DNA of 64,000 bases from Gemmatimonadota bacterium (GTDB lineage: Bacteria > Gemmatimonadota > Gemmatimonadetes > Palauibacterales > Palauibacteraceae): assembly GCA_039587445.1 (NCBI GenBank), contig JBDHIM010000019.1:1728-65727 (forward strand), given 5' to 3'. Numbering within the stretch: position 1 is the first letter of the stretch; each line of letters starts with the position of its first letter. Both the position numbers and the translations under genes were made by a program. Below the pieces are notes generated by a model. The model searched no databases, was not told where the DNA came from, and saw only the letters and a program-made list of their open reading frames with translations. Below, one piece after another: positions 13,811 through 28,525 of this stretch.

Positions 13811-14119
13811 TCAGCTCGACTTCCTCCCGGGTCTCGCAGGCAGCGCGGCCTCCGAGCGGAGGAATTCCTCGACGGCTTCCCGTCGCTCACGTCTTATGGC
13901 CATAAAGAGACCGCCACCGATCGCGCCGATGACGACCCAGGGGGACACCATCATGAACACGAGACCCCAGAAGAAGCCTTCCTGAACCTGCTGATCCGCC
14001 GCGGACACGCACGAGGGACAAGCCAGGAGCGGAGCCGGAAGTATCAGGAGAACCGTCATCGCGGCGTGCACGACGGCCGCGGTGAGGAATGCCGCACGCG
14101 CGCGGAGACGGCTCCGCAT
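13811..14119 (-). CDS. small CxxC membrane protein translationally coupled to ctaB (candidate oxidase assembly factor)
   Basis: 102 aa. ATG 14119 overlaps the ctaB stop by 1 nt (TGATG). Signal-like segment, CPSC motif, one TM (FFWGLVFMMVSPWVVIGAIGGGLFMAI). Confidence 0.5.
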   Translation of the reverse strand: MRSRLRARAAFLTAAVVHAAMTVLLILPAPLLACPSCVSAADQQVQEGFFWGLVFMMVSPWVVIGAIGGGLFMAIRRERREAVEEFLRSEAALPARPGRKSS

Positions 14120-15498
14120 CAAAGCACGTACAGCATGAGGTAGACGATGATGCCCGTGACGGAAACGTAGAGCCACACGGGCAAGGTTCCACGGGCAATG
14201 CTCCGGTGGCGATCGAAGTTCCCGCGCAACGCACGGATGAGCGTCATCGGCACGAGCACCACGAGAGAGGATGCCAGCACCGAGTGCGTGATCAGGATCG
14301 TAAAGTAGAGCGTGCGGGTCCAACCGAGGCCCTGGTACGGGACGGAGCCCACCTGGAAGTGGTAAACGAGGTAGCTCGCCAGGAACGCCGCGGAGGTTCC
14401 CACGGCGGCGAGCATCGCCAACCGATGAGCCTTCATCTTGCCGCGCCGTATCAAGCGCCAGCCGGTCAGCAAGAAGGCCGTCGTCAGGCCGTTGAGAACG
14501 GCGTTCACCGCCGGTAGGTCGTGGAGGCCCAGCTCGCGCGCTCCCTTGTCCAGGATCAGCAGGCCGTACACCAGTGGCAGGTACAGTAACGACATTCGAA
14601 AGACACGCCAGGCCGCTCCTTCCCCTCCACCCCAGGCGAAGCGGCCCGCGGAAGCCAGGTAGGCCAGGCCCAGTCCGAGTGCCCCGACGAAGTAGACCGG
14701 TCCCGTGAGACCAAGCAGCGACGGGAGCAGGCTCACCGGCAACAGGGCCAGGGCGTGGATGAGGGTCTGGTGCCGGGTGCGGACGCCCTCAGGATCCCTC
14801 ACCGCCAGCATGACCAGGCCGGCCCTCCGGTAGTCCTCCCGGTAAATCCACGCGAGGCTGAGGAAGTGCGGGAGCTGCCAAAAGAAGAGGATGCCGAAGA
14901 GGACCAGCGCCTCCGGTCCGAGGGAGCCGCGCGCCGCCGTCCAACCGCCGGCGATCGGGAGCGCCCCGGGGATCGCCCCCACCAATGTGTTCAGGGAGGT
15001 CACCCGTTTGAGCGGCGTGTAGCCGAGGACGTAAATGACCAGGGTGGCGGCTGCGAGTGTCGCCGTCAGCGGGTTCACCATCAGCGCCAGGTATCCGATG
15101 CCGGCGGCTCCCGTGAGAGCCGAGAAGATCCCGGCCTCGCGCGGGCTGACGCGACCGGTGGGGATCGGCCGGCGGCGCGTCCGGTCCATCCGGCGGTCAA
15201 CGTCACCCTCGAGCAGATGGTTGAAGCCGTTCGTGCCCGCGGCTACCAGGGCGACTCCGATCATCAGGTGAAAGAAGATCACGAGTGGCACGCCGGCCTG
15301 GAGGCCGAGGAAAAACCCGGTGGCCGCCGACAGCAGGACGAAGGTCGTGATCCGCGGCTTGGTGAGCTCAAAGAAATCCGCGGCACGCGCGACGCCGGTC
15401 CGGGGCGCCGCGACGACGCGCAATGCCGCCTCGTAACCCTCGGCGGCAGCGCTCACCTCGGCGGCAGCCGTCATCTCGGCGGCATCAACGGAGCTCAC
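14119..15498 (-). CDS. ctaB: protoheme IX farnesyltransferase (heme O synthase) fused to a C-terminal DUF420 (CtaM-like) domain
   Basis: UbiA-type N-terminal 300 aa (TKPRITTFVLL ... WQLPHFLSLAW). C-terminal 140 aa matches the DUF420 pattern (LPAVNAVLNGLT ... HRSIARGTLPVWLYVSVTGIIVYLMLY). Confidence 0.9.
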   Translation of the reverse strand: MSSVDAAEMTAAAEVSAAAEGYEAALRVVAAPRTGVARAADFFELTKPRITTFVLLSAATGFFLGLQAGVPLVIFFHLMIGVALVAAGTNGFNHLLEGDVDRRMDRTRRRPIPTGRVSPREAGIFSALTGAAGIGYLALMVNPLTATLAAATLVIYVLGYTPLKRVTSLNTLVGAIPGALPIAGGWTAARGSLGPEALVLFGILFFWQLPHFLSLAWIYREDYRRAGLVMLAVRDPEGVRTRHQTLIHALALLPVSLLPSLLGLTGPVYFVGALGLGLAYLASAGRFAWGGGEGAAWRVFRMSLLYLPLVYGLLILDKGARELGLHDLPAVNAVLNGLTTAFLLTGWRLIRRGKMKAHRLAMLAAVGTSAAFLASYLVYHFQVGSVPYQGLGWTRTLYFTILITHSVLASSLVVLVPMTLIRALRGNFDRHRSIARGTLPVWLYVSVTGIIVYLMLYVL

Positions 15499-15499
15499 G

Positions 15500-15877
15500 T
15501 CAGCGGTACTCCTGGAGCACGGTCATCACCAGCAGTACGGCGAGCGGCAGCGGCGAGGCCGCCATGACCGCCACGCGCAGCGGCTCGAACCGCAGGTGCA
15601 TGAAGTAGAGGGCGACCAGCAGCGCCTTCCAGACCGCCATGATCAGGAGCGCGATGACGATCCACGACTTCGGCAGCGCCGTGAACCCGACGACCGCGAC
15701 CTCGGCGGCCGTGAGCAGGGCGAGCCACAGCCACACCAGCAGGTAGCGCGGATGCGCGTGGCCACTGGCGTGCACCTCGGCCGCCGCCGCGCCGGCGCTT
15801 TCGTGCAATGTCTCGGTGCTGTCCAAGTCTCGCTCTCCCGTCAGATGAGGTAGACGATCGTAAACAGAATGATCCAA
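15500..15877 (-). CDS. cytochrome c oxidase subunit IV (prokaryotic COX4 family)
   Basis: Three-TM small protein downstream of ctaE; YLLVWLWLALLTAAEV pattern. Start uncertain: 15877 overlaps ctaE by 37 nt, and a TTG about 60 nt downstream with GGGAGAG is an alternative. Confidence 0.7.
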   Translation of the reverse strand: MDHSVYDRLPHLTGERDLDSTETLHESAGAAAAEVHASGHAHPRYLLVWLWLALLTAAEVAVVGFTALPKSWIVIALLIMAVWKALLVALYFMHLRFEPLRVAVMAASPLPLAVLLVMTVLQEYR

Positions 15878-16443
15878 ACGAGGTCCACGAAGTGCCAGTA
15901 TAGACCCAGAACCTCCAGGCCCTGGTAGTTCCCGTTGTCATAGCCGCCCCGGAACGCCTTCACCGTCGCCCACGTCATGCAGACCACGCCGCTGAACACG
16001 TGGAAGCCGTGGAAGCCGGTCATCGTATAGAAGGTCGATCCGTACAGGCCGGACCAGGGGCCGAATCCGTGCCCCAGGAGCTCACTGTACTCGTAGATCT
16101 GCACGCCCAGGAACGCGGCCCCGATGACCGCGGTGGCCAGCGTGAACAGCCGCGTTCCTCGCTTGTCTCCCACCTCGGAGGCGGCGAACGCCTTCACCAT
16201 CGTCACCGAGCTGCAGATCAGGATGAACGTGTTGATGGCGGTGACCGGGATGTTCAGGATCTCGCCCGGCTGCGGCCAGGTTTCGGAAGCCCCGAAGCGC
16301 AGGATGATGTAGGAGCCGATCAGCCCGGTGAAGAACATCACCTCCGAGCAGAGAAAGACCCACATTCCCACCTTTTGGGTGTACACGGCCAGACCCGTCT
16401 CCGGCGTCCGACCTCCGTAGTAAGGCATCGCGTGGGCTTCCAT
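15841..16443 (-). CDS. ctaE: cytochrome c oxidase subunit III
   Basis: 200 aa; heme-copper oxidase subunit III pattern (GFHGFHVFSGV ... YWHFVDLVWI). Confidence 0.92.
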   Translation of the reverse strand: MEAHAMPYYGGRTPETGLAVYTQKVGMWVFLCSEVMFFTGLIGSYIILRFGASETWPQPGEILNIPVTAINTFILICSSVTMVKAFAASEVGDKRGTRLFTLATAVIGAAFLGVQIYEYSELLGHGFGPWSGLYGSTFYTMTGFHGFHVFSGVVCMTWATVKAFRGGYDNGNYQGLEVLGLYWHFVDLVWIILFTIVYLI

Positions 16444-16514
16444 TACCCTCTCCCGCTCATGTGCCTGGCGCCAAGTGCTCGAAGTGCCACCCTCTCAAAG
16501 CGACCGCCGCCCAT

Positions 16515-18272
16515 TCAGTGTCCCGCCGGCGACACGACATCCGGTCGTTCGTTCTGCGCGAGCCAATCCTTGTCGGTGACATCCGGGTGGCTGTACTCGT
16601 GCGGCCCGTGGTAGACGACAGGGGCCTGCTCCCAGTTGCCGTGCTTGGGCGGCGAGGGGGTCTGCCACTCCAGGCTCGTCGCATTCCACGGGTTGGGCGG
16701 TGCCCTCTCGCCCCGGAACATGCTCCCGAAGAAGTTGATGGCGAAAATGACGCCCGTCGAGAAGAGTGCGAACGCGCTGATCGTGATCAGCAGGTGCGTC
16801 CCCTGGAGATCGGCTGTGTGCGTATAACCCGTGGTGTCGTACAGGCGGCGCATCATCCCGGCGAGCCCCTGCGTGTGCATCGGGAAGAAGGCGAGATTGA
16901 AGAAGATGAACGTGAGGGCGAAGTGGATCTTGCCCCAGCGCTCGTTCATCATCCGCCCGAACATCTTCGGGAACCAGTAGTAGATCGCGCCGAAGATTGC
17001 GAAGAGCGCCCCGCCGAAGAGCACGTAGTGGATGTGGGCCACGATGAAGTAGGTGTCGTGGATGTAGATGTCGAAGGGCGCCGACGCCATGAAGATCCCG
17101 CTCAGCCCTCCGATCACGAACAGCATCACGAACCCGATCGCGAACAGCATGGGCGTGTGGAAGTGGAGATTCCCCCTCCACATCGTGCCCATCCAGTTGA
17201 AGGTCTTGATCGCCGACGGCACCGCGATCACCAGGGTCGAGACCATAAAGCTGGTGCCCAGCACCGGGTTCATGCCGCTCTGGAACATGTGGTGGCCCCA
17301 GACGATGAAGCCGAGAAAGGCGATCGCCACGATCGCGCCCACCATCGCCTTGTAGCCGAACACCGGCTTTCGTGAGCCGGCCGAGAGGATCTCGGATACG
17401 AAGCCCATCGCCGGCAGGATGAGGATGTAGACCTCCGGGTGTCCGAAGAACCAGAAGAGGTGCTGCCACAGCAGCGGCTGGCCGCCGGTTTCGGGGAGGA
17501 AGAAGTGCGTCCCAATTGTCTGGTCGAACAGGAGCATGATCAGGCCGCCCGAGAGAACCGGCATGGCGAGCAGGCCCAGGATCGCGGTGACGAACAGCGC
17601 CCAAACCGTCAGCGGCATCCGCGTCCACAACATCCCGGGAGCACGCATGTTGATCACGGTGGTGATGTAGTTCGTGGAGCCCAGAATCGAGGAAAGACCC
17701 AGCAGCACAAGGCTCACTATCCACATCTGCTGGCCCATCGACACCCCGCTGTACTCCGGCATCCCGCTGAGCGGCGCATACGAGGTCCAGCCGGCGCCCG
17801 CCGCACCTCCCTCCACCGCGAAGCTCGCCAGGGCGATCAGGCCCGACGGCACCGCAATCCAGAAGGAGAGCATGTTCAGGCGCGGGAACGCCATGTCCGG
17901 GGCGCCGATCTGGAGGGGGATCAGGTAGTTCGCGAACACACCCACCAACAGCAGCATGATCGCGAAGAACACCATGAACGTCCCGTGCATGGTGACGAGC
18001 GAGATGTAGAACTCGGGAAGCATGATCCCGTCGGGCGCCATGGTCTCGGGGAACAGCCCGCCGAAGGGCATGGGCCGGCCGGGCCACGCGAGCTGCCAGC
18101 GCATCAGCATCGCCAGCAGTCCACCCACCAGCAGGAAGAAGAGGCTCAAGAAGAGGAACTGGATCCCGATGACCTTGTGGTCCGAGGAGAAGATGTACTT
18201 TCGGATGAAGGACATCTCGTGATGTTCCTCGACGACGGGGATCCCCGTCGGCTCGGCTACGATCGTCGCCAT
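16515..18272 (-). CDS. ctaD: cytochrome c oxidase subunit I (A-family heme-copper oxidase)
   Basis: 585 aa; canonical motifs (WFFGHPEVYILILP, HHMF, VAHIHYVLF). Confidence 0.97.
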   Translation of the reverse strand: MATIVAEPTGIPVVEEHHEMSFIRKYIFSSDHKVIGIQFLFLSLFFLLVGGLLAMLMRWQLAWPGRPMPFGGLFPETMAPDGIMLPEFYISLVTMHGTFMVFFAIMLLLVGVFANYLIPLQIGAPDMAFPRLNMLSFWIAVPSGLIALASFAVEGGAAGAGWTSYAPLSGMPEYSGVSMGQQMWIVSLVLLGLSSILGSTNYITTVINMRAPGMLWTRMPLTVWALFVTAILGLLAMPVLSGGLIMLLFDQTIGTHFFLPETGGQPLLWQHLFWFFGHPEVYILILPAMGFVSEILSAGSRKPVFGYKAMVGAIVAIAFLGFIVWGHHMFQSGMNPVLGTSFMVSTLVIAVPSAIKTFNWMGTMWRGNLHFHTPMLFAIGFVMLFVIGGLSGIFMASAPFDIYIHDTYFIVAHIHYVLFGGALFAIFGAIYYWFPKMFGRMMNERWGKIHFALTFIFFNLAFFPMHTQGLAGMMRRLYDTTGYTHTADLQGTHLLITISAFALFSTGVIFAINFFGSMFRGERAPPNPWNATSLEWQTPSPPKHGNWEQAPVVYHGPHEYSHPDVTDKDWLAQNERPDVVSPAGH

Positions 18273-18310
18273 ATCACGCTGCGCCTTTCTCTCGTCTCAT
18301 CTCGCCCCCC

Positions 18311-19081
18311 CTACATCCCGCCGGCGGAGTGCTCATGCCTGGCTTCCTGTCCGTCGTCCACGTCGTTGCCTCCGGAACCGGCGGTCGCCGCCACCGCCGT
18401 CGGCTGGCCGGGGTCAGTCCGCACCGCGATCTGCTCGTCGAGCCACGCCTCGTAGGCCTCGGGCTCGTGGATCCTCACCCTCGCTCGCATCCGGTAGTGA
18501 CCGAGCCCGCACAGCTCCGCGCAGCCTATCTGGTAGTCGCCCGCCTTCGTGGCTTCGAACCAGACCGGGATGGTCATCCCCGGCACGGCATCCTGCTTCA
18601 CCCTGAGTTGTGGGATGAAGAAGGAGTGCAGCACATCCTCGGACTCCAGCCAGACCAGGATCGGGCGGTTGGCCGGGAAGTGGAGCTGGTTGCGGGTGGA
18701 AAAGTCATCGCTCGTGCCGAGCACCTCATCGGCACCGGCGTAGGTGACGTTCCACTCGAACTGCTTCGCGCTCACCGCTATGTGCAGCGATTCGGAGGGC
18801 GCCGAGTTACGTCCCTTGATCTGAGCCCACACGTTGGCGCTGTACAGACCGAGAGCGACCATGGCCAGCGCCGGTACGGCCGTCCACAGGATCTCCAGGC
18901 TCTTGCTCCCGTGGGTGTAAAAGGCTCGCTGGCCCTCACGCCGCCGGTACTTGATGCAGAACCAGATGATTCCGACCTCGACCAGCACGAAGGCGATCGC
19001 GGTCACGACCGTGATCACCCAGAAGAGGGCATCGATCTTCCCGCCATACGTCGCGATATTCTCAGGAAGCGACCAGTTCAA
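18311..19081 (-). CDS. ctaC: cytochrome c oxidase subunit II (CuA; no fused cytochrome c domain)
   Basis: CuA site CAELCGLGHYRM; two N-terminal TM helices. Confidence 0.93.
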   Translation of the reverse strand: MNWSLPENIATYGGKIDALFWVITVVTAIAFVLVEVGIIWFCIKYRRREGQRAFYTHGSKSLEILWTAVPALAMVALGLYSANVWAQIKGRNSAPSESLHIAVSAKQFEWNVTYAGADEVLGTSDDFSTRNQLHFPANRPILVWLESEDVLHSFFIPQLRVKQDAVPGMTIPVWFEATKAGDYQIGCAELCGLGHYRMRARVRIHEPEAYEAWLDEQIAVRTDPGQPTAVAATAGSGGNDVDDGQEARHEHSAGGM

Positions 19082-19146: not shown

Positions 19147-20028
19147 CTAGTCGCCGGACTGCTCGCGCACGGCGGTGATGCTGCCGTCATCGGCATGCTT
19201 GATGATCAGCGGGTCACCGAGCGGCACCGCGTTCCGGGCCATGCCGGCGTTGAAGGTGAAGCTGACCTCCGCCGTCGCCCCTTCGCCGACCGTGACGTTG
19301 GTGGTCTGGGCTCCGAAGAGCTCGTGCCAGGCCTCCACCACGTAGTCGCCGGGTGGAAGGTTCGGAAGCGAGAAGGAGCCGTCGCCTCGGCTCACGGCGT
19401 AATACGGGTGGTCGACGACGCCGACGTACGCGCTCATCCAGCCGTGGACGTCGCACTTCACCGGGATCATCACCTCGGCCATCCCGAAGTCGCGCGTCGT
19501 CTCCATGCCGGCTTGCGGCTGGCTGATGTTGAAGCCTCGGTTGATGCTCGGCTGGGAGTTGATGTTGTGGAGAATCGGATCGCTGTTCCGAATCAACAGG
19601 GGCTGGTCGACCTGAACACCCAGGATGTGCGGGTGGTAGCGGCAGTTCTCCTGGTCCAGCACGGCGGGCTGTGACGGAGTCGGGAAGCCGGCGCCGAGCC
19701 CCTCTTTCACGTAAACGAAGACGTTCCCGAGCTTTCCGTCGCTGCTCACGAGCGCATTCTGGGTCAGGGCGCCCTCGCCGGGATATGCGTTATTGCACTC
19801 CGGCTCCTCGGCCATGTCGATCCGTTCCGCGGCGGGTGCCTCGCCCTCGAACGCGATGAGGCCACTGATCGCTCCGGCCGTGGCCGGATCTACGACCGGC
19901 GCGGCCGTCTCACCGCCCGCATCCGCCGCTGTGTCTCCGTCTCCGGTATCGGCATCGCCTCCACCTCCACACGCCCACACGAGGCCGGCGGCCGCGACCG
20001 TGGCCAACAGGCCAGTCTTCTCCAACAT
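19147..20028 (-). CDS. lipoprotein with cupredoxin (type-1 copper) domain plus CarboxypepD_reg-like domain
   Basis: Start ATG 20028 (MLEKTGLL..) is preceded by AGGAGG; lipobox VWAC. T1-Cu ligand pattern HN ... C-x2-H-x2-M (ILHNINS; CDVHGWM). C-terminal GSFSLPNLPPGDYVVEAWHE beta-sandwich motif. Confidence 0.65.
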   Translation of the reverse strand: MLEKTGLLATVAAAGLVWACGGGGDADTGDGDTAADAGGETAAPVVDPATAGAISGLIAFEGEAPAAERIDMAEEPECNNAYPGEGALTQNALVSSDGKLGNVFVYVKEGLGAGFPTPSQPAVLDQENCRYHPHILGVQVDQPLLIRNSDPILHNINSQPSINRGFNISQPQAGMETTRDFGMAEVMIPVKCDVHGWMSAYVGVVDHPYYAVSRGDGSFSLPNLPPGDYVVEAWHELFGAQTTNVTVGEGATAEVSFTFNAGMARNAVPLGDPLIIKHADDGSITAVREQSGD

Positions 20029-20066
20029 GGTGTTCCTCCTATCCCCGGTTGATGATGTGGATCTCC

Positions 20067-20459
20067 CTATCCTCGATAACTCTTCTGAGCACGCCTGACG
20101 GCGAACATCCCGAGCCCGCCCGTCACCAGAAAGGCGACCAACGGCGCCATGAAGACCGCGTTTGATGGCGGTGGCTGCAGGCCGACGAAGTACCAGGCGG
20201 AGATGGACCCCCGGCTGCCCGTCTCGCCGCTGCTCCCGTCCCAGGCAAAGAAGGCGATCGGGATCGGAGATCCCTCCCTGAACGAGAGCAGGCCATCGTC
20301 GGCCGCGGCCAACGGTCGACGAAAGACGACGCGCCACCGACCGGCCTCCCACTCCGCACTCGCCGTGAGACCGGCGCCCGAATCTACGACCTCGGTCGTG
20401 CCGAGGCCCGTCGCCCGCCCCTCGACCGCCCCTCGCCTGCTATGCCACAGCACGACCAT
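20067..20459 (-). pseudogene. C-terminal part of an EB_dh (ethylbenzene-dehydrogenase-like heme-binding) domain plus TM anchor; apparently split from the upstream ORF by a frameshift
   Basis: VVLWHS ... GRWRVVFRRPL ... IAFFAWDGSSGETGSRGSISAWYF matches the second half of EB_dh domains. The first half lies in the 20440-21573 ORF in another frame. Confidence 0.6.
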
Positions 20460-21573
20460 CCGCCGAGGTCATCGGAAACTGGATGGCCAAAAGGTCCGGG
20501 AGCGGCTCCGCCGGGATCGGCGACTCATCCGAGTAGAGGGCCCCGGCAATCTTGGCCTGCCACTCCTGCCAGCCAGGATCGGGACTGTTCGAGGGGTCGT
20601 GCCACTCGACGCGCAGAGCCAGCTCCGCTCCATCGTGGACGCCCTGCACCCATACGCCATCGACCGTCGGGGCGAACTGCCGTGGCGCCTCGACGATCTG
20701 GCCGACGAGCGGAAAATAGAAGCTCGGCAGATCGTCCCAGGAGGCATCGTTCGGGCCGTCCGGCAGCTGCTCGCGCCGCTCCACCCTCACGACCTCTTCG
20801 AGCTCCGGCGCCTTCGCGGGCCCGAGGCCTGCTACGTAATGAGCCAGGTTCCAGAGATCCTCTTCGGTGACGACGCCCGCTTCCAGCGCGTCCTGGTTGG
20901 AGGGCATGGGGGTGCCATCCACGCCGGTGAGGAAGCGCGTGTGGATCGCGTCGGCACCCACTCCGCCGTTGAAGAGCCAGGGCTCGGAGAGATCCGCGGC
21001 GCGGATCGGGAACCCCCTCCAGTCCTCGAGCGTCGGCGCCGATCTCCCGTCACCCCTTCCCTGCTCGCCGTGACACCGCGCACACTCGAGCGTGCCGTAT
21101 GTCTCTCGTCCGGGCCCGGCCCGATCGGCACCGCCACCCGGATCCGCGGATCGCTGAAGCACCTCGGGAGTCTCCCGCTCGAAGAACGGCGAGAAGCTCT
21201 TGACGAAGGCGACGACGTCCCGCTTCTCCTGGTCGCTCAGATTGGGCCAACCCGGCATCGCCGTCCCCGGAAGGCCGTCCCGCATGACCCGCATCAGATC
21301 GTCGTCCGTCGGGAGCTCTCCGCTCGCGGTCGTCCGTATCTGGTAGCGCGCGCCGACGAAGTCTCTCGGTCTCGGCAGCATCCGCGCGGCGGCCGGGCCG
21401 TCTCCCCGACCCTCCGCGCCGTGGCACTCCAAGCACCAGGCGCGATAGATCGCCTCTCCGTTCGCCGCATCCTGCGCAGGCGCCAGGCGCACCGGCAGAA
21501 GCAGCGCCACCAGCACCGCGATCCCCACCCCCACCCACCGCACGCGAGCCCCACGCAGCGGCAGCGGGGGCAT
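20440..21573 (-). CDS. secreted diheme cytochrome c fused to the N-terminal part of an EB_dh domain
   Basis: Signal peptide from ATG 21573 (MPPLPLRGARVRWVGVGIAVLVALLLPVRLAPAQD). CxxCH twice (CLECH, CARCH). EB_dh-like LRVEWHDPS ... LLAIQFP. Confidence 0.75.
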   Translation of the reverse strand: MPPLPLRGARVRWVGVGIAVLVALLLPVRLAPAQDAANGEAIYRAWCLECHGAEGRGDGPAAARMLPRPRDFVGARYQIRTTASGELPTDDDLMRVMRDGLPGTAMPGWPNLSDQEKRDVVAFVKSFSPFFERETPEVLQRSADPGGGADRAGPGRETYGTLECARCHGEQGRGDGRSAPTLEDWRGFPIRAADLSEPWLFNGGVGADAIHTRFLTGVDGTPMPSNQDALEAGVVTEEDLWNLAHYVAGLGPAKAPELEEVVRVERREQLPDGPNDASWDDLPSFYFPLVGQIVEAPRQFAPTVDGVWVQGVHDGAELALRVEWHDPSNSPDPGWQEWQAKIAGALYSDESPIPAEPLPDLLAIQFPMTSADGRAVA

Positions 21574-21704
21574 TGAACCGGGCAGGCTGCGGGCTCCGAC
21601 TGAGCGAGCGTCGCAGCGACGATGCGAAGACCCCGCAGCGAAGCGAGGAGGCTTCGCGTCCAAAGCGCGCAGCGAGCGAAGCGGAACCCGGAGCCTGCCC
21701 ACCA

Positions 21705-22511
21705 TCAGTGCCCCTCGCCTTCGTTGGATTCCTCCCACGTCCGAGGCGTCGAGCCGGAGCGCTCGTAGATGAAGAGGGTTACGGCCCAGATCTCATCGGC
21801 CGTGAGGAGATCGTCCCACGCCGGCATCGCCGAGTTCCAGGGGGCTCCTTCGACGGGCAGCCCCGGTCCCCCCGTGGCGATCCTCCAGAAGACGTAGCTC
21901 TCGGTCAGCTGGCTGATCGTCCCGTTGTCCGTGAAGTTGGCCGGAACCGGGTTCAGAGCGTGAGCCGCCGGTCCTTCGCCGTCCAACCGGTCCCCGTGGC
22001 AGGGCATGCAGTTCTGGACGTACACCGTGGCTCCAACCGCCAGGTGCTCCTCGAACGACCCGTGCTCGCGCAGCGGGTTCTCCAGCCCGGTCAGAGAGAT
22101 CGTTTCGCCCCGGAAGGTGATCTGGTTGGGCGGCGCCGGATGGATGGAGCGGAGCGAAGGCGGCGCACCGACGTCGGCCCGCACGCGGCCGTACGTCAGA
22201 AACCCGACCAACAGCGGGAACGCGACGAGCAGAGCGACACGGAACATCCGCTTATCCGGCTCCACCATCACCTGTCTCAGCGGGTCCTTGAACCGGGTCC
22301 AGCGATCTTCGTTCGTGCTCACGTAAAGGAGCAGAGCCACGATGACGGTGAGCATGTACTGGAGCAGCACGCTCGAGGGGACCGGCGCGCTGTGAACGCC
22401 TATGGCCGGCAGCAGATAGCCGATGCCGAACTTGAACAGGAGGTACGAGCCGACGAGCACGCCTAGCGCCTGCCAGAATGGGTGGCCGAGGTAGGAGCCC
22501 GCTCGACTCAT
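21705..22511 (-). CDS. membrane-bound monoheme cytochrome c (3 N-terminal TM helices)
   Basis: ATG 22511 (MSRAGSYLG..) is preceded by AAGGGAG. Single CMPCH heme site in the C-terminal soluble domain. Confidence 0.75.
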   Translation of the reverse strand: MSRAGSYLGHPFWQALGVLVGSYLLFKFGIGYLLPAIGVHSAPVPSSVLLQYMLTVIVALLLYVSTNEDRWTRFKDPLRQVMVEPDKRMFRVALLVAFPLLVGFLTYGRVRADVGAPPSLRSIHPAPPNQITFRGETISLTGLENPLREHGSFEEHLAVGATVYVQNCMPCHGDRLDGEGPAAHALNPVPANFTDNGTISQLTESYVFWRIATGGPGLPVEGAPWNSAMPAWDDLLTADEIWAVTLFIYERSGSTPRTWEESNEGEGH

Positions 22512-22548
22512 CCCGTCAGCTCCCTTCTCATCTCGTCCGGATCCGCTC

Positions 22549-23337
22549 TCATCGTTCTTCTGCCAGGAAGCGAACGAGGGTCTCGAGCTGCCCGGCAGAG
22601 AGCTGATCGCCGAAGTTCGCCGGCATCGTTCCGGCCACGGCCTCGAAGCCCTCTGCCGTGTCGGCATTGGGGAGAAGGATCGAATGCCGGATGTACTCCG
22701 GGTCCAGCCGACCGGCCATCTCGTCCAATCTGGGCCCGAGCGCCACCCCCTCTTCGCCGAGCTGATGGCAGGCTAGGCAGGTGCTCGCCCTCAAGAGCTC
22801 CACGGGATCCGTGACGGCGGGGTCGATCCCCGGGCCGGCCGCCGCGCCCGTCCCGCCGGCCCCGGCCGCGGCGCTTCCCGCACTCTCCGCGGGAATGTCC
22901 GCCGCGGTAACCGTGATCTCTCCTCCCTGATTCTCGAGGAAGGCCACGAGCGCCCAGATCTGCGCCTCAGAGAGGATCCGCCGCATGTCCGGCATGATTG
23001 GCTGGAAGCCGTCGATCACGAAGACACCCGGCTCGGTGAGGGATTCGTACAGGTACTCCTTGCAGGCCAGGCCCTCTCGGCGGGTCGCGCAGGTCGTGCC
23101 CGATACCCCGACCAGGTCGGGTGCCCGCGTGCCGAGCCCGTGGCAGGCGGTACAGCCGCCCGCACCCACGTAGAGCCCCTCTCCGATCGCGGCGAGTTCC
23201 TCGGGCGTGACGTCGGCCCCGATCGTCGTTTCCTCGGGCACCTCCGATGCGACCTGCGGGATCATGTTCGCGACCGCCGTATAGACCGCCAGCGTGCCGA
23301 TCACGATCAGCAGCACCGTCAGGTTCGTCCGAAGCAT
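22549..23337 (-). CDS. membrane-anchored diheme cytochrome c
   Basis: N-terminal TM, CTACH and CLACH heme motifs. Starts 3 nt after the CydA-like stop. Confidence 0.8.
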   Translation of the reverse strand: MLRTNLTVLLIVIGTLAVYTAVANMIPQVASEVPEETTIGADVTPEELAAIGEGLYVGAGGCTACHGLGTRAPDLVGVSGTTCATRREGLACKEYLYESLTEPGVFVIDGFQPIMPDMRRILSEAQIWALVAFLENQGGEITVTAADIPAESAGSAAAGAGGTGAAAGPGIDPAVTDPVELLRASTCLACHQLGEEGVALGPRLDEMAGRLDPEYIRHSILLPNADTAEGFEAVAGTMPANFGDQLSAGQLETLVRFLAEER

Positions 23338-23340
23338 CCC

Positions 23341-25059
23341 CTACGCCTCCGGCCCGGCGTAGTGGGCCGGCTCGGCGCCAGCGCTCAGGTCCATCTCGGA
23401 GGAATAGCGGGAGCTGACCGGGCTGGCGGCCGGCTGCTCGGCCAGTCCGCCGAGCCAAAAGATGAAGCCGACGAGCGCGAAGAAGATGAGGACGCAGATG
23501 CTGATCATCGTCGCGGCAGGACCAAGCGCCGGAGTGAACGCCTGGGGGCTGGTGTCGCGGATCACCTCGAAGACGTGCCAATGCTGCCGGATCCCGCTGC
23601 GCGCGAAGCCCATGAGACCCATGAGCCAGGTGAAGGTGACCGCCAGGATGAAGAGGGCATACTGCGAGCGCGCCGGCATCTGGCCCCAGCGTATGGCCCC
23701 CCGGGACGTCGCGCCCCTCATCATGAACACATCCAGACCGATGACGAAGAAGATGCAGGCGAGCACGGCGAGCACCTGGTACACGCTGAATCCGATCCGC
23801 ACGATCGCGGTCACGAAGTAGCCGTAGATCCCGTAGAAGAGGACGATCGCCGCCGAGAGCACGAACGCCGCGCCCTGAAGCATCGTCCCCGTCTTTGCCC
23901 ATGAGACGACCGGCTGCTTGTTCGCCCGCCGGTACAGGAGGAAGGAGAGGAACGTCGTCAGGATCATCAGGTTGACGGCCGTGTTCTTCGCGCTCATCAC
24001 GCCCAGGACGCCGAGGAACGGGTGGTGCGTGCCGCCCATCGCCGCGATCTCGCGTCGGTTGGCGATCATCGTATGCGGCGTGGCCCAGACGATCGTCCCG
24101 ATGACGAGGACCAGCAGCATCCACTTGATGTAGGGCATGAAGCGCTCTGCGCCCGGTATCCGGCCCATGCCGACCCAGAGGTAGTAGTTGCCGGTCAGGA
24201 ACAGGACGCCGATGAGGAACGCCTGGATGATCCACAGCCAGCTCATGAAGCCGCCCATCATCGTGATCCCCATCTGCTGGTTGAACTCGTAGATCTCGCG
24301 GCCCAGGTAGTAACCGGCGAAGGGGAGCACGATGAGCGCCCCGATCGCGATGAAGTTCCCGACGTAACCCATCCAGTCGTAGTGGGCTCTCTCCTCGTCG
24401 GTGCGTGACGCGAGGAACCGGTACGCCGCGTACGCCCCCACCACGGCGCCCCCGAACACCACGTTGGCGATGAGGCGATGGACGTTGATCGGCATCCACG
24501 TCGCGTTCGCGATCGCGCTCCAGAGCCGCACCGTCTGCGGAGCCGTGTCCGCCGCGAGGTCTCCCGGCGGGCTCATCATGAAGGTGAGCCAGCTGTTGGC
24601 GATGAACATCACGATGGTGCCCCAGACGTTCAGCGCCACGCCGAGGCCGAGATGGACCTTCTTGGAGAGACCCTTCTTCCAGCGATCCCACCCGTAGTAG
24701 TAGAGGTAGAGGGTGAAGGACTCGAGGAAGAAGAGCCCGGCGTACACCCACATCGACGGAGCGAAGATCGTCGTCAGATACGCCCAGAACCGTGGGTAGA
24801 GAGTGGCGAGGACGAAGACGAGGATCGCGCCCCAGATCGCGGTTGCGCTGTACGCGACCACGAGGAGCCGGGTGAACTCCTTCGCCAGCTTGTCGTACCG
24901 CTCGTCCCTACCGAAGATGCCGATCGCCTCGACGACGATCGCGAACATCGGAACGCCGAGCACGAACGCCGCGAACATCAGGTGCACCTGGGCGGCGATC
25001 CAGATCGCCCCGCGGGCCCCGATCAGCGGAAAGTCCCCGTACGCGGGGGCTTCGGCCAT
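23341..25059 (-). CDS. cytochrome bd subunit I (CydA)-like membrane protein, 13-14 TM, Q-loop-less, no CydB partner
   Basis: Conserved CydA signatures: TM1 His (AAQVHLMFAAF), FFLESFT (E99 region), TM5 His (PINVHRLIANVVFGG). ATG 25059 is preceded by AGGAGG; alternative GTG at 25131. Confidence 0.85.
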   Translation of the reverse strand: MAEAPAYGDFPLIGARGAIWIAAQVHLMFAAFVLGVPMFAIVVEAIGIFGRDERYDKLAKEFTRLLVVAYSATAIWGAILVFVLATLYPRFWAYLTTIFAPSMWVYAGLFFLESFTLYLYYYGWDRWKKGLSKKVHLGLGVALNVWGTIVMFIANSWLTFMMSPPGDLAADTAPQTVRLWSAIANATWMPINVHRLIANVVFGGAVVGAYAAYRFLASRTDEERAHYDWMGYVGNFIAIGALIVLPFAGYYLGREIYEFNQQMGITMMGGFMSWLWIIQAFLIGVLFLTGNYYLWVGMGRIPGAERFMPYIKWMLLVLVIGTIVWATPHTMIANRREIAAMGGTHHPFLGVLGVMSAKNTAVNLMILTTFLSFLLYRRANKQPVVSWAKTGTMLQGAAFVLSAAIVLFYGIYGYFVTAIVRIGFSVYQVLAVLACIFFVIGLDVFMMRGATSRGAIRWGQMPARSQYALFILAVTFTWLMGLMGFARSGIRQHWHVFEVIRDTSPQAFTPALGPAATMISICVLIFFALVGFIFWLGGLAEQPAASPVSSRYSSEMDLSAGAEPAHYAGPEA

Positions 25060-25142
25060 AGCCTCCTGAGCGAGCCCGGGTTCCAGGGCGAGGAGCAAAA
25101 GCGCCGCGGCGCCGGCCGCCGCTCGAAGCACGCCGCGGGGAC

Positions 25143-26534
25143 TCAGCGCTCGCCTCGCAGGAAGAACGGCATCCGCTTGGAGAAATCCACCGGCATCTCC
25201 TCGCGGACCCGTTCCATGAGCTCGGGCGTCACGACAGACTCCCCGGTGCGCCGGGCAAACTCCTCCAGCCGCCTCACGACCACCCCCCGCACGAATGACG
25301 GCACGCGGGCCAGCCGCGCCTCGGCCTCCGGGCTCCACTTCAGCTCCGGAGCAGCCGCTGTTCCGTATGATGCGACGCGAGGCAGGACCGGCTCGGCTTC
25401 GCCGGTCGGCTCGTAGGCGCACGACTCGTCGGAGCCCAGGTAGTCGCCGCTCTCGGCAAAGGCTCTCGCCCTGCAGCCACCGCATATCAAACGGTACTCG
25501 CAGCGTCCGCACTTGCCCTCCAGCTGGCCGGTGCGGATCTCTCCGAATACCGGCGAGTCCCGCCACACGTCCGCGAAGGCGTCTCGGCGCAAATCGCCGG
25601 CGACGACCGGCAAGTAGGGACAGGGCGTCAGCTTCCCTTCCGGCGTGATGCGGCAGTACTGGACGCCGCACGGGCAGCGGGTCGCGTAGTTGAGCAGGGG
25701 TGACTCCGGATCGGCCTCGAACACGTGCCGCATGATCTGAGGCTGGCACTTCGAGCGCACCATCATGACCCCCCGGTACTCCTTCTGGAGGTCGGCGAGC
25801 TCCGCCAACACCTCTTCGTTCTCACGCGGCCCGAGACCGCGCATCCGCTCGCCGCGGCCCGTGGAGACGAGAAAATAGAGATTGAAGCACACGGCTCCGG
25901 TCGATGCGGCCCAGTCGGCGAGGCTCCTGACCTCGTTCCGGTTGCCCCGCGTCAGCGTCATCTGAACGACGAAATCCAGCTGTGCTCGGCGCAGACGCTC
26001 CACGGCGGCCAGCGTCTCCTCCAGGGCGGCCTGGCCGTGTCGGAAACGGTCGTGGTACTCCGGGTTCAGCGAATCCACGCTGACCGCGACCCCGCGCACG
26101 CCGGCGTCCTTGAGTGACGCGATCCGCTCGGCCGTAAGGCCGATACCGTTCGTGCCTATCACGACGGTGGCGCCGCCATCGGCAGCGTGGCGGGCGATGG
26201 ATTCGAGGTCCTCCCGGACGAGCGGCTCTCCCCCGGACAGAACGAACATCGGAGAGGGGCTGATCTCGAGGATCTCGTCGGTGATCCTCATGCACTCCTC
26301 CGTCGAGAGCTCGCGGTCATCGCTCTCCCAGGATCCGGCCGAGATGTAGCAGTGCGCGCAGGCAAGGTTGCAGCGGCGGGTGAGATTCCACGCGACGACG
26401 TGAGGAATCGCCTCGGGCGATCGGGCATGTGAATCGGCGGCTTCGCTTCTCTCGGCGGATGAGAGCCGGACCCAGTCCTCGGCGGGGGCCGCGGCGGAGG
26501 CACGAGCCGGGGAGACGCCGAGAGCTTCGCTCAA
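25143..26534 (-). CDS. radical SAM/SPASM enzyme of the NirJ/AhbC/AhbD type with a C-terminal PCP_red domain
   Basis: CNLACAHC (Cx3Cx2C). NirJ-like blocks (VVAWNLTRRCNL, VLSGGEPLVREDL, GTNG, VSVDSLNPEYHDRFR). SPASM Cys cluster (CPCGVQYC...CPY...CGRCEYRLICGGC). C-terminal WSPEAEARLARVPSFVRGVVVRRLEEFARRTG. TTG start overlaps the upstream stop (TTGA). Confidence 0.88.
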   Translation of the reverse strand: MSEALGVSPARASAAAPAEDWVRLSSAERSEAADSHARSPEAIPHVVAWNLTRRCNLACAHCYISAGSWESDDRELSTEECMRITDEILEISPSPMFVLSGGEPLVREDLESIARHAADGGATVVIGTNGIGLTAERIASLKDAGVRGVAVSVDSLNPEYHDRFRHGQAALEETLAAVERLRRAQLDFVVQMTLTRGNRNEVRSLADWAASTGAVCFNLYFLVSTGRGERMRGLGPRENEEVLAELADLQKEYRGVMMVRSKCQPQIMRHVFEADPESPLLNYATRCPCGVQYCRITPEGKLTPCPYLPVVAGDLRRDAFADVWRDSPVFGEIRTGQLEGKCGRCEYRLICGGCRARAFAESGDYLGSDESCAYEPTGEAEPVLPRVASYGTAAAPELKWSPEAEARLARVPSFVRGVVVRRLEEFARRTGESVVTPELMERVREEMPVDFSKRMPFFLRGER

Positions 26535-28525
26535 CGGCGGGTTTCCTCCTCGGCCATGAAGCTCTCCATAGCGCGCCTCGCCTCCTCGGGGGTGGCCGTC
26601 TTGAAGTCCACCGGACAGTCGGACATCTCTCGTTCCACATCCCGAATCGGACAGCGCGTCACGCCGGAGGCCTTCGCCTCATCGATGAAGCGGCGCATCT
26701 CCTCGCTCATTCCGTCGAGGCCGGCCGCCTCCGCCTTCACCTGTTTCGCTTTCAGCTCGTTGAACATCACGAGCATCGTGTCCATGTCGAACTCGTCGGC
26801 CTCGATCATCGCCTGCTTGTTCTCGTCCATGACGCGAGTCGTGACGCGCCACAAGCCCGCCTCACGTGTGAAGCTCTCGACGGTGTTCCGGGCCAACGGC
26901 CGGGCGATCAGCGGGACGAGCCCCAGGCGCGCGAACGCCTCGTGCGTCCAGATGATCGGGTCGGCTTCCGTGCGCGGGCGCATGCTCACCTGGCCGGTCA
27001 CCGGGCAGCGCGTCTCCACCGCCATCGGCTCGGCGAACTCGTCGTCATCGGCCGTCACGACGACGGTTCTCTTCATCGATTCTTCCGCTTTGACCTCGGC
27101 GAGCGCGAACTCTTCGGCGTCGCCGATCCCCATGATGAGCTGCATGTGAGTGGGGAGGAGCTTCTGGATGGCACGGTCCAGCCAGGCGCTCGTCACCGTG
27201 GGGATCCCGGGGGGAGTGTACTCGGCGTGCTCCAGCACGTACTCCTCGACAGCTTTACGCGCGATGCCGAGCGCGAACGGGGGGACGCGGAGGATTCGAA
27301 CCTCGGCATCGGGCGCCCACTCGAGCCCCTGCTCGCCATCCTGCTCGATCCAGGGGATCTCCTCCGGCCGAACGTCCGTCGTGCCGATCAGCAGAACGTT
27401 GCAGGGGGCGAGTCGCAGGACGTTCTCCGCCTGGCTTCCCATCGCCGTGCCCTCGATCCGGTGGGCGCCGTGACGAGCCAGGACGATCAGCGTCGGATCG
27501 ATCTCCTCGGTCCATTGCATGACGACCTGGAACGGCTTGCCGATCAGGATCTGCGTCTCTAGCTCGACGTCCGGGAACTCCTCGGCCATCGCCTCGGCCC
27601 GCTTGATGTTGGCCTGCGCGAGCTTGAGAAGGCCCTTGTCGATGATGTTGTTGTGAAGCTCTTCCTGCTCCTCGAACTTGAAGACGCGCGACGCCTGGAC
27701 GGAAAGCACATCCTTGATGTTGTGAAAGACGGCGTGGTGATACTCGACGTCGAAGGCGCTGCAGACGAAGAGCCTCGCCCCGAACTCCCGCGCCATCTCC
27801 AGGACCTGGCGCATGGCCTTGTAGCAGTACGCCGATCCATCGACGCACACGATCCATCGCCCGCCGGCCAGCGGCCGGTCGTCCCGGATCAGCAGCATGT
27901 CCTTCTCGACGCCGCGAGCGACGCGGGAGGCGACGCCGCCGATCTGCGACAACGGCTGGATGCCGATGCCGTGCGCCCCCATGACGAGAAGGTCGTAGTC
28001 GCGGCCCGAGCTTCCCGCCAGCTTCTCCTCGTGCTCCTCGTCCTCGGCGACGAGACGGCCGTTCTCGCCGACCCTGACATCACTGCGCACTCGCTCGCCA
28101 CCATCGTATCCGGCAGCGATGTTCGGGTCGAAGCCGATCAGGCTGGGGAGGCAGCCGCGGCCCTCGTTCGCCTCCCTGATTATCTCCTCGTAGTTGATGC
28201 CTTCAAGGAGCTGCCGGGTCATTGGCACCTCCGCCTCTTCGCACCGTAAGCTCACTTGATCCAAGAAGCTATCGGAGATCAGCTGAAGGCCTTTCTCGAT
28301 GAGCTTGTCGTGGATCTTGCGCTGGCGCTTGATCTCATCGGGCGTCTGAAACTGCGCCGGTAGACCGGTCTCCAACTGGCGGAAGCGGACGTCGTGCAGG
28401 CGGGCGGCGTAGACGTGGTTCGCGGTGAGGTGACCTTCGGAGACGCTGCAAAGCTCAAGCGCCCGGTCGACCGCCCACGTCGAATGGTGGGAGTTGTCGA
28501 CCGGTACGAGAAGCTCTCGATACAA
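26531..28525 (-). CDS. tandem universal stress protein (USP) domains fused to two PCP_red-like modules and a C-terminal CP-motif region
   Basis: USP1 aa 1-215 (LLVPVDNSHHS ... VMGAHGIGIQPLSQIGGVASRV). USP2 aa 223-381 (WIVCVDGS ... ARHGAHRIEGTAMGSQAENVLRLAPCNVLLI). PCP_red-like aa 401-456 and 524-570. TTG start with GGAG upstream. Confidence 0.8.
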   Translation of the reverse strand: MYRELLVPVDNSHHSTWAVDRALELCSVSEGHLTANHVYAARLHDVRFRQLETGLPAQFQTPDEIKRQRKIHDKLIEKGLQLISDSFLDQVSLRCEEAEVPMTRQLLEGINYEEIIREANEGRGCLPSLIGFDPNIAAGYDGGERVRSDVRVGENGRLVAEDEEHEEKLAGSSGRDYDLLVMGAHGIGIQPLSQIGGVASRVARGVEKDMLLIRDDRPLAGGRWIVCVDGSAYCYKAMRQVLEMAREFGARLFVCSAFDVEYHHAVFHNIKDVLSVQASRVFKFEEQEELHNNIIDKGLLKLAQANIKRAEAMAEEFPDVELETQILIGKPFQVVMQWTEEIDPTLIVLARHGAHRIEGTAMGSQAENVLRLAPCNVLLIGTTDVRPEEIPWIEQDGEQGLEWAPDAEVRILRVPPFALGIARKAVEEYVLEHAEYTPPGIPTVTSAWLDRAIQKLLPTHMQLIMGIGDAEEFALAEVKAEESMKRTVVVTADDDEFAEPMAVETRCPVTGQVSMRPRTEADPIIWTHEAFARLGLVPLIARPLARNTVESFTREAGLWRVTTRVMDENKQAMIEADEFDMDTMLVMFNELKAKQVKAEAAGLDGMSEEMRRFIDEAKASGVTRCPIRDVEREMSDCPVDFKTATPEEARRAMESFMAEEETRR

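Follow-up and report, generated by a model that had tools for sequence, protein, structure and literature searches.

Gene content of the locus

We analysed a 64,000-nucleotide stretch of DNA (the window: positions 1,728 to 65,727 of contig JBDHIM010000019.1, GenBank assembly GCA_039587445.1) from a Gemmatimonadota bacterium of the family Palauibacteraceae, concentrating on a gene for a homologue of the cytochrome bd oxidase subunit CydA and on the respiratory genes around it. The source metagenome-assembled genome (MAG) comprises 3.19 Mb in 251 contigs and is 89% complete. The G+C content of the window is 63–70% and many of its open reading frames (ORFs) are spurious; the genuine genes between 14 and 30 kb all lie on the minus strand. 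As listed in Table 1, the CydA homologue is followed, after a gap of 3 nucleotides (nt), by genes for three membrane-anchored cytochromes c, the last of them carrying an EB_dh (EbdC-like) domain, then by a lipoprotein gene and an operon for an aa3-type cytochrome c oxidase. An AhbD-like radical SAM gene lies 11 nt upstream of the CydA homologue and is its neighbour in nearly all related loci.

Table 1. Features of the bd-like gene cluster and the adjoining oxidase operon, in window coordinates (TM, transmembrane; AF2, AlphaFold2).
Feature	Position	Strand	Basis
AhbD/NirJ2-like radical SAM/SPASM enzyme with PCP_red tail	25143..26534	−	Pfam; TIGR04055 (286 bits) and TIGR04545 (275 bits), both below cut-offs
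OR-N2-type cytochrome bd-like CydA homologue	23341..25131	−	PF01654, PDB, hhalign, AF2/Foldseek, signature residues
Dihaem cytochrome c of 262 aa, anchored by a single N-terminal TM helix, CxxCH at 62 and 187	22549..23337	−	PF13442, PF00034 (two stretches each)
3-TM monohaem cytochrome c, 269 aa, CxxCH at 169	21705..22514	−	PF13442, PF00034; three hydrophobic segments
Dihaem cytochrome c with first part of EB_dh (EbdC-like) domain	20440..21573	−	PF13442, PF00034, EB_dh profile 3–75, TIGR03477 3–71
Site of 50-nt frameshifting deletion, removing ...GRGRPYFLMGEGRNPVYLW...	20440..20460	−	DNA alignment with L002, L003 and L005; three-frame translation
Remainder of EB_dh domain with C-terminal TM anchor, in another frame	20067..20459	−	EB_dh profile 172–234 (E = 2e-9); TIGR03477 110–204 (E = 3e-14)
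Lipoprotein with amicyanin-like cupredoxin domain and CarboxypepD_reg-like beta-sandwich	19147..20031	−	AF2, Foldseek, conserved residues
aa3-type cytochrome c oxidase operon	14119..19081	−	Pfam and NCBIfam
coxB, full CuA motif CAELCGLGHYRM, no haem c	18311–19081	−	
coxA	16515–18272	−	
coxC, followed by a small ORF	15841–16443	−	
ctaB (haem O synthase, UbiA family) fused to DUF420 (CtaM-like), 459-aa ORF, end of oxidase operon	14119–15498	−	

A CydA homologue without the Q-loop

The core gene encodes either 572 amino acids (aa; ATG at 25059, preceded by AGGAGG) or 596 aa (GTG at 25131). Use of the GTG adds a signal-peptide-like segment, LRAAAGAAALLLLALEPGLAQEA, and because every family member examined has an equivalent, we regard 25131 as the likelier start. 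The Pfam model PF01654 (Cyt_bd_oxida_I) aligned with residues 16–268 only, corresponding to profile positions 3–248 of 418 (E = 3e-24, 86 bits), and profile–profile comparison with a canonical Gemmatimonadota CydA by hhalign (98.6% probability) was likewise confined to residues 15–256, that is, to TM helices 1–6. The best PDB sequence match was Geobacillus CydA (5doq_A; E = 1e-10, residues 11–213), and the closest solved relatives, from Geobacillus and mycobacteria, were similar over the first 210–260 residues only. Both hydropathy and an AF2 model (pLDDT 78.5, pTM 0.81) gave 13 TM helices in addition to the N-terminal signal-peptide-like hydrophobic segment, and the ten top Foldseek matches of this model in the PDB were all CydA chains. 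At the position of the canonical Q-loop, TM6 and TM7 are linked by about 12 residues (259–271).

These results bear out a first-pass annotation of the sequence, which had described a Q-loop-less CydA homologue of 13–14 TM helices that keeps the CydA hallmarks of a TM1 His, the motif FFLESF and a TM5 His. The residues in question are H26, E113 within FFLESF, and H194 within PINVH194RLIANVVFGG. When aligned to solved CydAs, H26 falls on the H19/H21 ligand (H21 in Geobacillus), Y106 and E113 on the two proton-channel Glu residues, Y120 and Y122 on Y115 and Y117, and H136 on H126/H128, with H194 positioned beside H186. H26 was invariant in 29 sequences, and H26, Y120 and H136 stayed invariant, with E113 nearly so, down to 30–39% identity.

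A joint MAFFT alignment with canonical CydA matched RQHW (491–494) to GRQPW, S488 to E445, and M355/N359 to the Met ligand region; M355 is the probable partner of H194 at a haem b558-type site. Two further His residues, H346 and H495, are invariant in the window-type family and absent from canonical CydA. In the topology model both fall in periplasmic loops and share their membrane face with H26, H194 and M355, and we consider them candidate ligands of a third cofactor replacing the lost Glu. From the positions of these motifs, rather than from a structure, we infer that the four extra helices form two inserted hairpins, TM7–8 at the site of the Q-loop and TM10–11 between the equivalents of canonical TM7 and TM8. 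A reading of the C-terminal half as a fused CydB was also considered and found unsupported: Foldseek matches to CydB were weak (E ~0.1, compared with 3e-7 to 4e-5 for CydA chains), and the motif alignment favours two hairpins inserted into the CydA frame.

Set against canonical CydAB (E. coli 6rko/6rx4, Geobacillus 5doq), the window protein thus shares the homology of TM1–6, the His ligands, E107, H126 and the overall fold, and retains GRQPW in altered form. It differs in lacking CydB, CydX and the Q-loop, in its four additional TM helices, and in the replacement of E99 by Tyr and of E445 by Ser. The electron donor is quinol in the canonical enzymes, whereas cytochromes c are the proposed donors of the complex encoded in the window.

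Absence of CydB and separation from canonical CydA

The CydB model PF02322 had no match anywhere in the 3.19-Mb MAG, in which PF01654 matched once. Nor did it match in any of 12 genomes from the same family, of which three are single-contig; each of these 12 held only short-type PF01654 matches as defined below. More than 536 related loci were found, nearly all of them in Gemmatimonadota (Longimicrobiales, Palauibacter and relatives), and 80 of these were examined; tblastn with the cluster proteins of the window filled these 80 syntenic loci and left no space for cydB.

Across a sample of 201 Gemmatimonadota genomes, PF01654 scores were bimodal. A full-length type (390–568 bits, ~68 genomes) always had CydB directly next to it, and a short type (50–92 bits, covering the first 240–250 profile positions) occurred in ~59 genomes; in those of the 201 genomes that held the short type only, CydB was absent. 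In a maximum-likelihood tree of TM1–6, which compared the window type with canonical CydA from Gemmatimonadota, the window-type proteins split from the canonical ones with an SH-aLRT support of 100%. The first-pass annotation had reported that no CydB accompanies the gene, and had named a cydB missed at orthologous loci, or a place within canonical CydA clades, as what would overturn its reading; cydB turned up at none of the 80 loci, and the window protein stands apart in the tree.

Assignment to the OR-N2 subfamily

In a published comparative-genomic classification of the bd superfamily (Murali, Gennis, Hemp 2021; bioRxiv 10.1101/2021.01.16.426971), OR-C proteins carry CxxCH inside an 8-TM CydA and are typically paired with a second CydA-like subunit. 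OR-N proteins lack the quinol site, and within that group OR-N1 and OR-N2 have 14 TM helices. The same study describes multiple cytochromes c together with an ebdC homologue as typical of OR-N2 operons, and lists OR-N in Gemmatimonadota. Its Table S6 gives the characteristic residues of OR-N2 as H99, Y183, E190, Y197/Y199, H213, H269, M430/N434, S563 and W569, for which the window protein has H26, Y106, E113, Y120/Y122, H136, H194, M355/N359, S488 and W494, respectively. The intervals between these residues correspond closely in the two proteins, and those between H194 and M355 (161 residues) and between S488 and W494 (6 residues) are identical to those of the OR-N2 reference. On its signature residues, helix number and operon content, we assign the window protein to OR-N2 (NIDE0901-like).

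This assignment departs in part from the first-pass annotation, which had recognised a bd-superfamily member tied to c-type cytochromes and had likened it to OR-C. The tie to c-type cytochromes stood, and the OR-C label had to be dropped. The window protein does share with OR-C the missing Q-loop and c-type haems as presumed donors. However, OR-C combines CxxCH in an 8-TM CydA having a C-terminal periplasmic haem c domain with E99, E107 and an OR-C1b partner, whereas the window protein has no CxxCH motif anywhere in its 572 residues, 13–14 TM helices, Tyr (Y106) in place of E99, and is the single CydA-like protein of its genome.

In papers from 2023–2025, OR-N2 is identified with the 'bd-like oxidase' of Nitrospira (NIDE0901-like), and its subunit composition and function are described as unconfirmed; in the literature, OR-N2 figures as a putative terminal oxidase that would oxidise cytochrome c. 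The earlier remark that no member is known to have been characterised biochemically still applies: our sequence and fold searches of the PDB returned canonical bd oxidases only, with no structure from this branch, and papers from 2024–2025 describe experimental confirmation as lacking. In common with the Nitrospira and Nitrospina proteins, the window protein has about 14 TM helices, no quinol site, equivalents of H19, H126 and H186, the signature formed by the Y/E pair, YxY, M..N, S and W, and an operon with several cytochromes c and an ebdC homologue. It differs from them in that its genome has no OR-N1-type second CydA-like partner, in the absence of a nitrite oxidoreductase context, and in that the module sits with a blue-copper lipoprotein, an aa3 oxidase and an AhbD-like radical SAM module. 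Since Murali et al. state the operon content of OR-N2, the architecture as such is already published at the comparative-genomic level, and the gene family is a known one. We found no published description of the present Gemmatimonadota arrangement in the literature; what is new here is the unique EB_dh deletion, the blue-copper lipoprotein accompanying the module, and the aa3 linkage in Gemmatimonadota.

Associated cytochromes c and a deletion in the EB_dh domain

The first-pass annotation had listed three c-type cytochromes downstream of the core gene, with the third, dihaem one fused to an EB_dh domain. The genes are all present, and an intact fusion ORF is not, as it is split here by a 50-nt deletion. 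The dihaem–EB_dh ORF at 20440–21738 (CxxCH at 102 and 219, counted from the GTG at 21738) reaches an early stop through this frameshift, and the rest of the domain continues in the 20067–20459 ORF, which includes a TM helix at its residues 99–122. The relatives that define the deletion are 90–96% identical to the window. Among related loci, 65 of 65 have the EB_dh gene as a single uninterrupted ORF, and the deletion was seen in this assembly only; it reflects either a fault of the assembly or a genuine loss. The deleted stretch includes the residue aligned with the haem ligand Met108 of EbdC (2ivf_C, ethylbenzene dehydrogenase subunit gamma).

If real, the deletion would inactivate the EB_dh subunit, and the module might then be decaying in this organism, the complex being impaired or working without the domain. 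Decay is consistent with the restriction of the lesion to one assembly against 65 intact loci, with the loss of both a conserved stretch and the C-terminal anchor, and with the state of the MAG (251 contigs); moreover, short-read assemblies rarely create 50-nt deletions as errors. Nevertheless, the rest of the cluster is intact, its genes being 96% identical to those of relatives, and an assembly artefact or a minority variant offers another origin for the gap. We view decay as a rather doubtful explanation.

The C-terminal domain of the third cytochrome aligned with EbdC (2ivf_C) at E = 5e-8 and showed a weak match to anammox NxrC (7b04_C); both of these are haem b-type gamma subunits, found in periplasmic enzymes of the type II DMSO-reductase family. 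While the C-terminal domain is homologous, that of the window differs from the EbdC/NxrC type in its fusion to both a dihaem cytochrome c and a C-terminal TM anchor, in having no Mo enzyme nearby, in a Met ligand that is only 70% conserved, and in the absence of the Lys ligand. A universal EbdC-type Met108/Lys201 ligand pair was rejected: of 66 EB_dh homologues, 46 have Met at the position of Met108, and the Lys201 equivalent is not conserved.

Other loci also speak for the cytochromes c as direct partners of the core protein. In locus L093 (protein P0002, 117–2786), the OR-N2 protein is fused at its C-terminus to a homologue of the dihaem cytochrome c, giving an 889-aa polypeptide with CxxCH at 677 and 814; the OR-N2 part is 56% and the cytochrome part 34% identical to the window proteins. 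Two other cluster representatives (P0004 and P0015) likewise carry C-terminal haem c motifs. A further OR-N2 locus, L128, is only 35% identical, and retains homologues of the 3-TM cytochrome c (36% identical), the dihaem–EB_dh protein and the lipoprotein.

A blue-copper lipoprotein belonging to the module

The AF2 model of the lipoprotein (pLDDT 80.7) matched amicyanin, plastocyanin and pseudoazurin in Foldseek searches, with target-normalised TM-scores (TMt) of 0.6–0.75. The cupredoxin ligands H155, C193 and H196 were invariant in 22 sequences and M199 nearly so, forming an amicyanin-type C-x2-H-x2-M loop, and the protein is probably a type-1 copper electron carrier of the module. Its homologue in L128 (28% identity, E = 4e-27) occurs at a locus that has no haem-copper oxidase, which indicates that the lipoprotein belongs to the bd-like module and not to the oxidase operon. 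Two Cys residues, C79 and C130, are also invariant and may form a disulfide or a second metal site.

Linkage to an aa3-type oxidase

Gene order was fixed in ~80 Gemmatimonadota loci: Mrp and ferredoxin, Usp-PCP_red, the AhbD-like radical SAM gene, the bd-like gene, the dihaem cytochrome c, the 3-TM cytochrome c, the dihaem cytochrome c–EB_dh gene, the lipoprotein, coxB, coxA, coxC and ctaB. From Usp-PCP_red to ctaB, all gaps in the window are at most 131 nt, with no convincing terminator between the genes, although a promoter and terminator scan was uninformative (11 terminator-like sites versus 7.8 ± 3.1 in shuffled sequences).

The module was present in ~29% of sampled Gemmatimonadota genomes and, in nearly every carrier from this phylum, lay directly upstream of one specific aa3 clade. 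CoxA orthologues of at least 66% identity were found in essentially the same genomes as the OR-N2 gene, adjoining it wherever contigs allow. Exceptions came from family f7 (G072 C7, G131 C80 and G158 C202; loci L124–L126), in which an aa3 operon at 64–67% CoxA identity stands without the bd-like module, its cytochromes c and the lipoprotein. The position of the module is not taken there by an alternative complex III (ACIII) or another complex; what lies there instead is an amino-acid permease gene and outer-membrane genes, none of them related to it. The OR-N2 module and the aa3 oxidase are separable, but almost always joined in Gemmatimonadota. As CoxB has CuA and no haem c, the aa3 enzyme needs an external one-electron donor.

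Proposed electron flow and competing explanations

The analysis establishes homology and topology, which residues are conserved, what the clusters contain, and how far synteny and co-occurrence extend; cofactors, the path of the electrons and the substrate are inferred. We consider a cytochrome c-fed O2 reductase to be the most likely function of the complex, with about an even chance of being correct. Within the core (TM1–6), H26 would ligate the active-site haem, E113 would provide one Glu of the proton channel, H136 is kept alongside them, and H194 would serve as a haem b558-type ligand. The Q-loop, which is the canonical site of quinol oxidation, appears to have given way to a short turn plus a TM hairpin, with a second hairpin inserted further along the chain. 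Electrons would enter from the periplasmic side through the three membrane-anchored cytochromes c (five c haems), the EbdC-like domain and the lipid-anchored blue-copper protein, and would then pass to the b558-like haem and on to a high-spin haem at H26, at which O2 would most likely be reduced. The module and the aa3 oxidase form one same-strand cluster, and both oxidases probably draw on the same cytochrome c and copper carriers. An O2 reductase fits better than a plain electron relay because the half of the protein containing H26, E113 and H136 is kept, the quinol site is lost, and the cytochromes c are fused or tightly coupled to the core.

Several observations weigh against this assignment. 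No OR-N enzyme has been purified, and O2 reduction is for this reason an assumption carried over from canonical bd oxidases. The Glu ligand of the third haem (E445 in E. coli) is Ser in the window protein (S488) and the proton-channel E99 is Tyr (Y106), so that the active site may differ from that of canonical bd. It is uncertain whether the EB_dh domain binds haem b, with its EbdC-type Met variable and the Lys not conserved, and the gene for this subunit is frameshifted in the MAG. The two modules can also exist apart, as family f7 has aa3 without OR-N2 and L128 has the OR-N2 module without aa3. Finally, the genomes already possess one or two haem-copper oxidases, and a further oxidase is not obviously needed.

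The linkage to aa3 lends itself to another explanation, in which the b-haem protein takes electrons from the quinone pool at a site formed by the extra helices and hands them on, by way of the c haems and the blue-copper protein, to the CuA centre of the aa3 oxidase, acting as a functional counterpart of bc1 or ACIII that is dedicated to this oxidase. Such a role would account for the fact that, in Gemmatimonadota, the module is found almost exclusively together with, and next to, one aa3 clade, would supply the donor required by an oxidase that has CuA and no fused cytochrome c, and is in keeping with the retention of b558-type ligands, which belong to the quinol-side haem in canonical enzymes. 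Five complete relatives, moreover, have no PF00033 cytochrome b. Against this, other quinol:cytochrome c routes are available: the MAG contains three cytochrome b genes (PF00033; G000 contigs C212 and C75), including two on a single contig separated by 6 kb, and ActC-like NrfD proteins occurred in 8 of 8 genomes checked. For the same reasons we rejected the module as a general substitute for a missing complex III. The Q-loop is gone and no quinol site can be recognised, the O2-site residues H26 and H136 are invariant and E113 nearly so, which a mere relay would not need, and L128 has the module without aa3. The presence of other complex III-type enzymes and the occurrence of the module without aa3 weaken this main rival, and we judge a quinol-oxidising entry point to be unlikely.

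The complex might alternatively reduce another small oxidant, such as NO, H2O2 or other reactive species, or act as a membrane anchor or relay for periplasmic redox enzymes docking at the EbdC-like domain. Periplasmic Mo enzymes of type II have EbdC-type domains as their haem b subunits, and the ligand set departs from that of canonical bd (E445 to Ser, E99 to Tyr, and the new invariant H346 and H495), both of which are compatible with such roles. However, no Mo enzyme was seen among the genes annotated at 14–33 kb of the window, the conserved neighbour is itself an O2 reductase, and no direct evidence favours an alternative substrate; we regard either role as quite improbable.

A more far-reaching proposal would be that in Gemmatimonadota the OR-N2 module and the adjacent aa3 oxidase constitute one branched respiratory unit, wired together by the five c haems, the EbdC-like domain and the blue-copper lipoprotein. 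The bd-like protein would then be either a second, differently tuned O2 branch or a quinol entry feeding aa3. We rate this proposal as a long shot; if true, the branched OR-N2/aa3 unit would represent a kind of respiratory supercomplex that is so far undescribed.

Implications for the OR-N2 family

Whether OR-N2 proteins are real terminal oxidases has awaited an answer since this was proposed for Nitrospira. Nitrospira are slow-growing and hard to manipulate. A cultured heterotrophic carrier, if one exists, would make deletion and purification practical, and could settle the donor, acceptor and cofactors for the family as a whole. The coupling to a blue-copper protein and an aa3 oxidase in Gemmatimonadota is the most useful new lead in this respect. 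In addition, the database label 'cytochrome ubiquinol oxidase subunit I' is misleading for proteins of this kind, and inflates the counts of bd quinol oxidases in metagenomic surveys.

Additional observations on neighbouring and related loci

Upstream of the core gene, at 25143–28525 of the window, the genes for the AhbD/NirJ2-like radical SAM enzyme and the Usp-PCP_red protein overlap by 4 nt, and the pair is kept in nearly all of the 80 loci. L128 is without this pair, and has the cytochrome c biogenesis genes ResB and CcsA there instead.

Three orphan OR-N2-like proteins (P0039, P0022 and P0068, from loci L090, L091 and L092) are 30–40% identical to the window protein, form a separate clade and are not accompanied by cytochrome c genes. 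M355 is replaced by Glu in most of this clade and retained as Met in P0022. These loci say little about the module and were set aside as a guide to it.

Two sponge MAGs labelled 'Gammaproteobacteria bacterium' (SB0662_bin_11 and SB0661_bin_31; loci L014 and L017) contain the full Gemmatimonadota-type cluster at 77–78% identity. These loci group with those of Longimicrobiales, and the gammaproteobacterial label is therefore probably wrong.

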